In this document: positions 1 through 3,000 of the stretch, piece after piece
How the letters are laid out: the number at the start of each line of letters is the position of its first letter
How positions within the stretch are numbered: the first letter of the stretch is position 1
From: a virus
Taxonomy: Duplodnaviria; Heunggongvirae; Uroviricota; Caudoviricetes
Strand: one strand, 5' to 3'
Virus record (IMG/VR): IMGVR_UViG_2690316318_000012
Location: 1-4,064 of that record
Length of the DNA stretch: 4,064 nt
Position numbers: made by a program

Positions 1-3000
1 GATGGCGCGCCGTTCCGCTACAGCTTCAGCGCCCTGAAGGACCGCCATAATGCCGAAAAAAAAAAACCGCAGTAATGTGGTAACGGCTGGGAGACGGCAA
101 CAGAGCTTGTGGAGGACACGCAGGCCATTGCCCGTTACGGTCGTAACGTCACGAAGATGGATGCCTTTGGCTGTACCAGCCGGGGGCAGGCACACCGCGC
201 CGGGCTGTGGCTGATTAAAACGGAGCTGCTGGAAACGCAGACCGTGGACTTCAGCGTGGGTGCTGAAGGGCTTCGCCATGTACCGGGCGATGTCATTGAA
301 ATCTGCGATGATGACTATGCCGGTATCAGCACCGGCGGGCGCGTGCTGGCGGTGAACAGCCAGACCCGGACGCTGACGCTCGACCGTGAAATCACGCTGC
401 CATCCTCCGGTACCACGCTGATAAGCCTGGTTGACGGAAGTGGCAATCCGGTCAGCGTGGAGGTCCAGTCCGTCACCGACGGCGTGCAGGTGAAAGTGAG
501 CCGGGTTCCTGACGGCGTTGCAGAATACAGCGTGTGGGGGCTGAAGCTGCCGACGCTGCGCCAGCGCCTGTTCCGCTGTGTGAGTATCCGTGAGAACGAT
601 GACGGCACGTATGCCATCACTGCCGTGCAGCATGTACCGGAAAAAGAAGCCATCGTGGATAACGGGGCGCACTTTGACGGCGACCAGAGCGGCACGGTGA
701 ATGGTGTCACGCCGCCAGCGGTGCAGCACCTGACTGCCGAAGTCTCGGCAGACAGCGGGGAATATCAGGTGCTGGCGCGATGGGACACGCCGAAGGTGGT
801 GAAGGGCGTGAGCTTCCTGCTTCGCCTGACTGTGGCAGCAGACGACGGCAGTGAGCGGCTGGTCAGCACGGCCCGGACGACGGAAACCACATACCGCTTC
901 AGGCAACTGGCTCTGGGGCGTTACACGCTGACCGTCCGGGCGGTAAATGCGTGGGGACAGCAGGGCGACCCGGCGTCGGTATCGTTCAGGATTGCCGCAC
1001 CGGCAGCGCCGTCACAGATTGAGCTGACGCCGGGCTATTTTCAGATAACCGCCACGCCGCATCTTGCGGTTTATGACCCGACGGTACAGTTTGAGTTCTG
1101 GTTTTCGGAAAAGCGGATTGCCGATATCCGGCAGGTTGAAACCAGCGCGCGCTATCTTGGCACGGGGATGTACTGGATAGCCGCCAGTATCAATATTAAG
1201 CCGGGTTCTGATTACTACTTTTATATCCGTAGTGTGAACACCGTTGGCAAATCGGTATTCGTGGAGGCTGTCGGTCAGCCGAGTGATGATGCATCAGGCT
1301 ATCTGGATTTTTTCAAAGGAGAGATAGGGAAAACCCATCTGGCTCAGGAGCTGTGGACGCAGATTGATAACGGTCAGCTTGCACCTGACCTGGCTGAAAT
1401 CAGGACGTCCATTACGGATGTCAGCAATGAAATCACGCAGACCGTCAATAAGAAACTGGAAGACCAGAGTGCGGCAATTCAGCAGATACAGAAGGTTCAG
1501 GTTGATACAAATAATAACCTGAACAGCATGTGGGCTGTGAAGCTGCAGCAGATGCAGGACGGACGCCTTTATATCGCTGGTATCGGTGCCGGTATTGAGA
1601 ACACCCCCGACGGCATGCAGAGTCAGGTGCTGCTGGCGGCAGACAGGATTGCGATGATTAATCCTGCAAATGGCAACACAAGACCAATGTTTGTTGGTCA
1701 GGGCGATCAGATATTCATGAACGATGTGTTCCTGAAGCGTCTGACGGCCCCGACCATTACCAGCGGCGGCAATCCTCCGGCATTTTCCCTGACACCGGAC
1801 GGGCGGCTGACGGCGAAAAACGCTGATATCAGCGGTAACGTGAATGCGAACTCCGGGACGCTCAACAATGTCACGATAAGTGAGAACTGTACGATTAAGG
1901 GCATGCTGGAGGCGAATCAGGTCAGGGGAGACTTCGTTAAAACTGTATCAAAAGCCTTCCCGAAAAAAGTCGGCACGTGGGGGGATACGGAAACACCAGG
2001 CGGGACGGTTACAGTCACCATCAGCGATGACCATAAATTTGACCGCCAGATTATTATTCCGCCCATTATTTTTAATGGTATAGCGTATACCGATCCGGGA
2101 AGTGGTGATAATCCGGGAGGTACAAAGTACACGGGGTATGGTTTTGAGGTTCGCAAAAACGGCGTATTAATTGCATCCAGAGAAACTAAAGGGGCCATTC
2201 CCGGTAGTTACAGTGCGGTTATTGATATGCCGAGTGGGCGAGGTAGCGTCACTCTGGAGTTTAAGATTTTCCAGAAAGGGAATCAGGGGGCAGGCAATAT
2301 CACCGACTGTACGGTGATTGTGACCAAAAAAGCGGCTTCCGGCATCAGTATCCGTTGAAATATTTATAACCCGATAACGGGCGCCAGAAATGGCGCCTTT
2401 TTTATTTGTGGAGTGAGTATGGCAGTAAAGATTTCAGGTGTGCTGAAAGATGGTGCAGGTAAGCCGATACAAAACTGCACCATTCAGCTAAAGGCCAGGC
2501 GCAACAGTACCACGGTGGTGGTGAACACGGTGGCCTCAGAAAATCCGGATGACGCCGGGCGTTACACAATGGACGTCGAGTATGGTCAGTACAGCGTCAT
2601 TCTGTTGGTGGAGGGATTTCCGCCGTCACATGCCGGGACCATCACCGTGTATGAAGATTCTCAGCCGGGTACGCTGAATGATTTTCTCGGTGCCATGACG
2701 GAGGAGGATGCCCGGCCGGAGGCACTGCGCCGTTTTGAACTGATGGTGGAAGAGGCAGCGCGTCACGCTGAGGAGGCGAAGAAGAATGCCGGAGAGGCAG
2801 AGACGTCAGCGAGGAATGCGGGTATATCAGCCGGCCAGGCGGAAAAGAGTGCAGTAAATGCTGAGACTTCTGCAGGGGATGCATCGGAGTCAGCCCGGCA
2901 GGCGACGGAAAGTGCAGCCTCTGCAAAGAAGTCAGAGGATGCGTCCTCGTTCTCGGCTTCTGCGGCCGCTCAAAAAGCCAGTGAGTCATCACAAAGTGCA

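Follow-up and report, generated by a model that had tools for sequence, protein, structure and literature searches.

The closest described counterpart of the gene studied here is J of phage lambda, which encodes the tip attachment protein gpJ (the central tail fibre). Two further situations bear on the comparison: the decay of cryptic lambdoid prophages, which typically proceeds through point nonsense mutations, frameshifts, deletions and insertion sequences (IS), and the errors that occur at the contig ends of short-read draft assemblies. The stretch of DNA that we analysed (hereafter the window) is the 4,064-nt IMG/VR virus record IMGVR_UViG_2690316318_000012, whose positions 1-2358 are colinear with lambda J from nt 1141 (codon 381) onwards. 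The 749-amino-acid (aa) open reading frame (ORF) annotated in it holds, in the same order as lambda J, the Pfam domains Phage-tail_3 (C-terminal part), Ig_J, Ig_J_second, Phage_Tail_Tip and Ig_GpJ_C. By colinearity and domain architecture the gene belongs to the lambda gpJ family, and its C-terminal receptor-binding part differs from that of lambda as a matter of ordinary host-range mosaicism; its frame, however, is interrupted by a stop at codon 405, inside the Phage-tail_3 domain (lambda residues 330-498). The short block that brings in this stop is in our opinion most likely an assembly, software or chimeric-read artefact that is not part of the J gene of the organism, a reading to which we give a probability of about 0.7.

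Frame 1 of the window reads as J-like protein on either side of an in-frame TAA at 73-75 (+ strand): DGAPFRYSFSALKDRHNA is followed by EKKKPQ*CG (the asterisk being the stop) and then again by J-like protein, and after the TAA the frame stays open as far as the stop at 2356-2358. A sequence-only reading of the window had come to the same view of the two flanks and of the TAA between them, except that it counted the J-like stretch upstream as codons 1-72, which are nucleotides and correspond to 24 codons. It had also proposed a patch at 55-81 (27 nt), of the same length as the lambda segment and hence a substitution and not an indel. The alignment agrees with that proposal, as window 1-160 aligns without a gap to lambda J nt 1141-1300 with a divergent block of equal length. 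The location was thus right, but the extent by alignment is 56-81 (26 nt); since G55 is common to the wild type, 55-81 is merely the patch rounded to whole codons.

The window was aligned first to Escherichia coli M10, E. coli 377323_2f, phage Ayreon and lambda, and then to its closest relative, L005 (contig DAQCTV010000035.1 of the independent assembly GCA_032538065.1). Positions 1-55 (+ strand), which hold J codons 381-398 and the first base of codon 399, are wild type and 100% identical to lambda J nt 1141-1195 and to the M10, 377323_2f, Ayreon and L005 sequences. Identity to the first four references resumes at 82-98, and in between, opposite 56-81, lambda and all of the relatives have the same intact wild-type 26-mer, TTGAGGTGAACTGGATTGACCCGAAC. 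Against the closest relative 21 of the 26 patch bases differ, the five identities comparing with 6.8 predicted from base composition alone, while the remaining 3,935 aligned bases outside the patch show three differences. The differences between patch and wild type involve all four bases, and 21 mismatches out of 26 against a sequence invariant in five references exceed what chance allows. Copy-specific bases of this J are also found downstream of the patch and include A99, G111, G114 and C117.

At the protein level the patch turns residues 399-407 from VEVNWIDPN into the nine-codon string given above, and does so in this record alone. In distant J-like proteins from Burkholderia, Serratia, T1-like coliphages and Klebsiella phages, which are 34-47% identical to lambda, the nine-residue segment is of constant length and conforms to x-x-V-x-[WYF]-x-D-x-x, and the patch string resembles none of them at this segment. 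Beyond the patch, J (codons 408-1165 with the stop; 82-2358, + strand) is intact according to the Pfam scan and to a repair made in silico, in which restoring the wild-type 26-mer gave 785 open codons and a protein identical to L005 J at 786 of 786 residues. Nothing after the stop suggests that selection has been relaxed.

The patch begins with a run of 11 A's at 56-66, the sole homopolymer of at least 8 nt in the window, and no homopolymer of that length was found in the J regions of related loci. Reference alignments resolve the patch into two parts. Nine untemplated A's at 56-64 (+ strand) stand in place of TTGAGGTGA, and the 17-mer AACCGCAGTAATGTGGT at 65-81 (+ strand) stands in place of ACTGGATTGACCCGAAC, so that the contig reads AAAAAAAAAAACCGCAGTAATGTGGT across the site. 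A 15-mer search of the window allowing up to three mismatches matched the patch only to itself; as no template lay inside the window the search was widened, and it located the 17-mer just upstream of the contig. It reproduces J nt 1114-1130 exactly and in direct orientation; the native site of that stretch is 91 nt further upstream (window coordinates -26 to -10) and thus beyond the 5' end of the contig. The 17-mer occupies this same place of J in the closest relative (L005:1054), in three further loci (L001:3974, L002:3974 and L003:2974) and in lambda (L007:1114), and the chance expectation of such a match is about 7e-7. The base preceding the source 17-mer is T, so the A's at 56-64 are not part of the copy. 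The two parts add up to 9 + 17 = 26 nt, exactly the number replaced, and neither junction has microhomology (source context GTGGT/GATGCC, target context CGAAC/AACGGC). The TAA of codon 405 comes from the displaced 17-mer: it exists because the copied AGT AAT sits one base out of its native frame. Judged by this composition, the patch is not a random sequence. PhiX spike-in DNA was considered as a source and rejected, as it shares no word of 8 nt or longer with the patch.

In order to evaluate how widespread the patch is, we compared window 1-400 with 12,871 J places in 4,496 complete E. coli genomes and with 199 phage places, in which the best matches reached 95.5% and 95.3%, respectively, and none carried the patch. 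The 95.5% ceiling is approximately the cost of the patch mismatches alone. The patch 21-mer AAAAAACCGCAGTAATGTGGT had no match in 185,579 species genomes (one genome per species) and none in the IMG/VR viral contigs. Its single metagenome match (L004:472-492) falls between genes in an AT-rich part of contig Ga0209429_10123242, which is 1.1 kb long and unrelated; it belongs there to a hairpin-like AAAAAACC...GGTTCTTTT motif, and we take it for a chance match. By these comparisons, the patch is a singleton in the collections searched.

The window is byte-identical to the entire 4,064-bp contig CYCK01000080.1 of draft assembly GCA_001286085.1, which carries the GenBank label Escherichia albertii, an assignment confirmed by ClermonTyping (PMC8715443). 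As the window is the whole contig, the patch starts 55 nt from the contig 5' end. J-bearing E. coli genomes have a median of 2 and a maximum of 13 J places, the strain sequenced here probably has several lambdoid prophages, and both ends of the contig lie in multi-copy repeats, i.e. in the kind of region where draft assemblies are least reliable. The truncated J is deposited as CTW55285.1 (749 aa; 109-2358, + strand), recorded on one contig alone under both E. albertii and E. coli names. Its GTG start at 109 is a fallback forced on the gene caller by the stop and not a real start; by alignment to lambda it is an internal Val codon of intact J, and the sole GGAG upstream lies 15 nt before it. 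Searches with the three proteins of the strain for further assemblies or Logan contigs returned the deposited contig alone.

The closest relative has the wild-type 26-mer and differs from window 1-3961, outside the patch, at positions 1473, 1476 and 1479 only, all three changes being synonymous; it also encodes an identical 437-aa tail-fibre protein. The three changes are clustered at third codon positions within a span of 7 nt, which suggests a micro gene-conversion between J copies or the consensus of a collapsed repeat.

Three observations shifted our interpretation of the patch towards an artefact, namely the end of the whole contig only 55 nt away, the displaced 17-mer and the intact, near-identical copy in an independent assembly. 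The exact preservation of length with unrelated content, the A filler and the transplant without microhomology point away from a mutation that arose in a cell, and an A9 run joined to an exact upstream 17-mer looks, from its letters, like misplaced data and not like mutation or base-call noise. The origin of the block would then probably lie in silico or in a read. We propose that the contig end fell inside a multi-copy prophage repeat, where 26 positions would have been given the right length and filled with the wrong content. The fill would consist of nine A's, as zero or N padding would give under two-bit-per-base storage in which A is 00, followed by 17 bases of neighbouring J, and its source may have been a buffer over-read or wrap-around, or else a chimeric or padded read that extended the contig end. 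The true sequence at the site would be the wild-type 26-mer, and J would be intact there. The padding and over-read mechanism is speculative. So is a numerical point in its favour: the 55 correct nt plus nine A's make 64 nt, which is as many as a 128-bit word can store at two bits per base, and the first 64 nt might accordingly be seen as a 55-mer padded with zeros, with 17 nt of adjacent sequence after it. Like the known contig-end errors of short-read drafts, the patch lies within one read length of the end and in a multi-copy repeat, preserves length, contains poly-A filler and misplaced local sequence, and is absent from an independent assembly. In contrast to them, a documented bug with exactly this signature was not found, and padding or over-read is not a named artefact.

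Several points weigh against an artefact at the contig end. It is deduced from the assembled sequence, and a literature search did not identify the assembler or the read type. A contig that begins exactly 55 nt ahead of the first divergent base would equally be expected of a branch specific to a real copy in a de Bruijn graph with k=55, and with reads of about 100 nt at least two of them would have to support the k-mers that span the patch. At the other end, the 103-nt run into the IS does not simply fit k=55. The IS disrupts the tail-fibre C-terminal gene, so the prophage may already be defective and tolerant of a real J lesion. Finally, the contig is listed with 'samples_with_this_contig = 4'; the four samples are probably aliases of one assembly, and if four independent assemblies truly share the contig, the case for an artefact weakens.

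The explanation that survives best after a contig-end artefact is a real and very recent complex mutation, in which a 26-bp deletion was accompanied by a 26-bp insertion made of an A-tract and a 17-nt copy from 91 bp upstream; J would be truncated at codon 405 and the E. albertii prophage unable to build its tail tip. The deposited sequence itself shows such a lesion, the IS in the neighbouring tail-fibre gene suggests a prophage that may already be decaying, and the start of the contig agrees with a copy-specific branch, as said above. In other organisms, template-switch repair is known to leave insertions copied from flanking sequence close by. However, a deletion combined with an insertion gives no mechanistic reason for the exact preservation of length, and neither junction has microhomology. 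Slipped misalignment at the shared ATGCCG hexamer would yield a duplication instead, and as the 17-mer copy is direct, quasipalindrome template switching does not apply. The lesion would moreover be a singleton among about 13,000 J copies, free of any further decay in a gene that is identical to its relative at all residues once repaired, and placed 55 nt from the end of a draft contig. We therefore regard a real lesion as a minority possibility, perhaps one chance in a handful. A specific form of it, an unusual in-vivo repair of a break in J with untemplated A addition and a short template switch 91 bp upstream whose length was preserved by chance, is decidedly improbable. Such a repair might have involved template switching by a polymerase or a reverse transcriptase, or copying from a fragment of J mRNA that ended at nt 1195 and was polyadenylated.

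As in decaying cryptic lambdoid prophages, a stop interrupts a tail gene that is essential, and the neighbouring tail-fibre C-terminal gene has a genuine insertion of the IS3 family, but a scrambled block in register that includes a displaced 17-mer is atypical of the changes by which these elements decay, and the remainder of J is here without decay. Of the three options that the sequence-only reading had left side by side, the genuine lesion with its defective prophage is thus possible without being the best supported, the sequencing or assembly artefact is the one we favour, and local divergence is rejected for the reasons given below.

A burst of cycle-locked miscalls in a single read carried to the contig tip could account for a patch that is in register, opens with a homopolymer and is no more than a read length away from the contig end. 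Under such noise, however, 17 consecutive miscalls would have to reproduce a real J 17-mer found 91 nt upstream, and the exact match excludes pure base-calling noise, leaving this explanation very little weight. Still less can be given to a natural divergent allele, or to a mosaic formed by gene conversion from another J-like gene. J genes are mosaic and the cluster at 1473, 1476 and 1479 shows micro-exchange between copies, but no J place in the E. coli genomes or phages exceeds 95.5% over window 1-400, the patch string is unlike any homologue at a segment of invariant length, the wild-type 26-mer does not vary between lambda and the closest relative, and the 17-nt donor is the same gene read out of frame.

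Programmed recoding is the least probable of the alternatives. It could take the form of ribosomal or transcriptional slippage on the A11 run directly upstream of the stop, of stop readthrough, or of a bypass like that of T4 gene 60 from the take-off CAG at 70-72 to the matching in-frame CAG at 121-123, 48 nt further on. When the A-run was set to 9, 10, 12 or 13 in a simulation, the frames ended at codons 27, 71, 28 and 72, respectively, so that none entered the J frame; with every length from 9 to 13 meeting a stop, slippage is unable to rescue it. That a change in the A-run could not restore the frame had already been argued from the sequence, as had the out-of-frame stop with 10 A's, although this was placed near 208 and the frame-2 stop is in fact at 212-214. 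The other forms fare no better: the fold of 40-110 (+ strand) is no better than that of shuffles (z = -0.3), chance alone would place an in-frame CAG within 16 codons in about 20% of cases, a bypass would cost the protein 13 conserved residues, among them the NGWETA Asn, invariant in 8 of 8 aligned sequences, readthrough would still leave eight unrelated residues, and the slippage site is absent from the five references and from any J place in the E. coli genomes or phages. Three other candidates were rejected, namely the variable region of a diversity-generating retroelement (in a 4,064-bp contig that holds J, the tail-fibre genes and an IS end, the 17-nt copy is identical to its source and has no further flanking homology, the A's are untemplated and the differences are not adenine-specific), an IS or transposon insertion as the patch (there is no change in length), and a terminator or promoter at the A/T run (no sites were found on either strand, and the folds were no better than shuffles).

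Downstream of J the gene order is the one seen in the gpJ-type prophages compared, with a tail-fibre gene followed by a small Phage_fiber_C gene. The 437-aa tail-fibre protein (2419-3732) has a phage_tail_N domain at residues 1-133, collagen triple-helix repeats at 302-360 and a Phage_fiber_C domain at 363-426, and this exact protein occurs on two public contigs only. There is no lom (Ail/Lom) gene between J and the tail fibre, which is also the case in 377323_2f and L005, unlike in lambda and most other relatives, where lom is present. The spacer at 2359-2418 contains a clear hairpin followed by a T-run, GGCGCC-AGAAAT-GGCGCC-TTTTTTATTT, at about 2380-2407, that looks like the J terminator.

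The last part of the window, 3962-4064, is the end of an IS3-family (IS2-like) element, with the terminal inverted repeat and first 103 nt starting TGGATTTGCCCCTATATTTCCAGACACC; more than 2,000 E. coli records match it at 100% identity. The ORF of the small Phage_fiber_C gene (3734-4048) runs into it after about 76 codons; the annotated 104-aa product is thus a fibre::IS read-through fusion. The corresponding gene is uninterrupted and encodes 89 aa in L005, and E. coli O55:H7 DEC5B has an IS2 elsewhere in this gene. In the relatives, the tail-fibre genes are closely followed by type III secretion effector genes (L005:5191-8624 and L003:7213-9961), coding for an NleH/OspG-type kinase, NleG and a HECT-type E3 ligase. 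Since the relatives carry these effectors, the window belongs with an effector-carrying lambdoid prophage lineage common to E. coli and E. albertii.

If the patch is a contig-end artefact, as is most likely, it is not a biological feature: CTW55285.1 with its GTG start would be a mis-annotated truncation of a normal 1,165-aa J, and the stop codon would give no basis for calling the prophage defective. Anomalies within about 100 nt of the ends of draft contigs accordingly need read-level support. If the patch is real, it would add one more dead tail gene to a decaying prophage, ordinary in effect and unusual in form, and its mild mechanistic interest would be limited to the form of the lesion, which would be templated and length-preserving.

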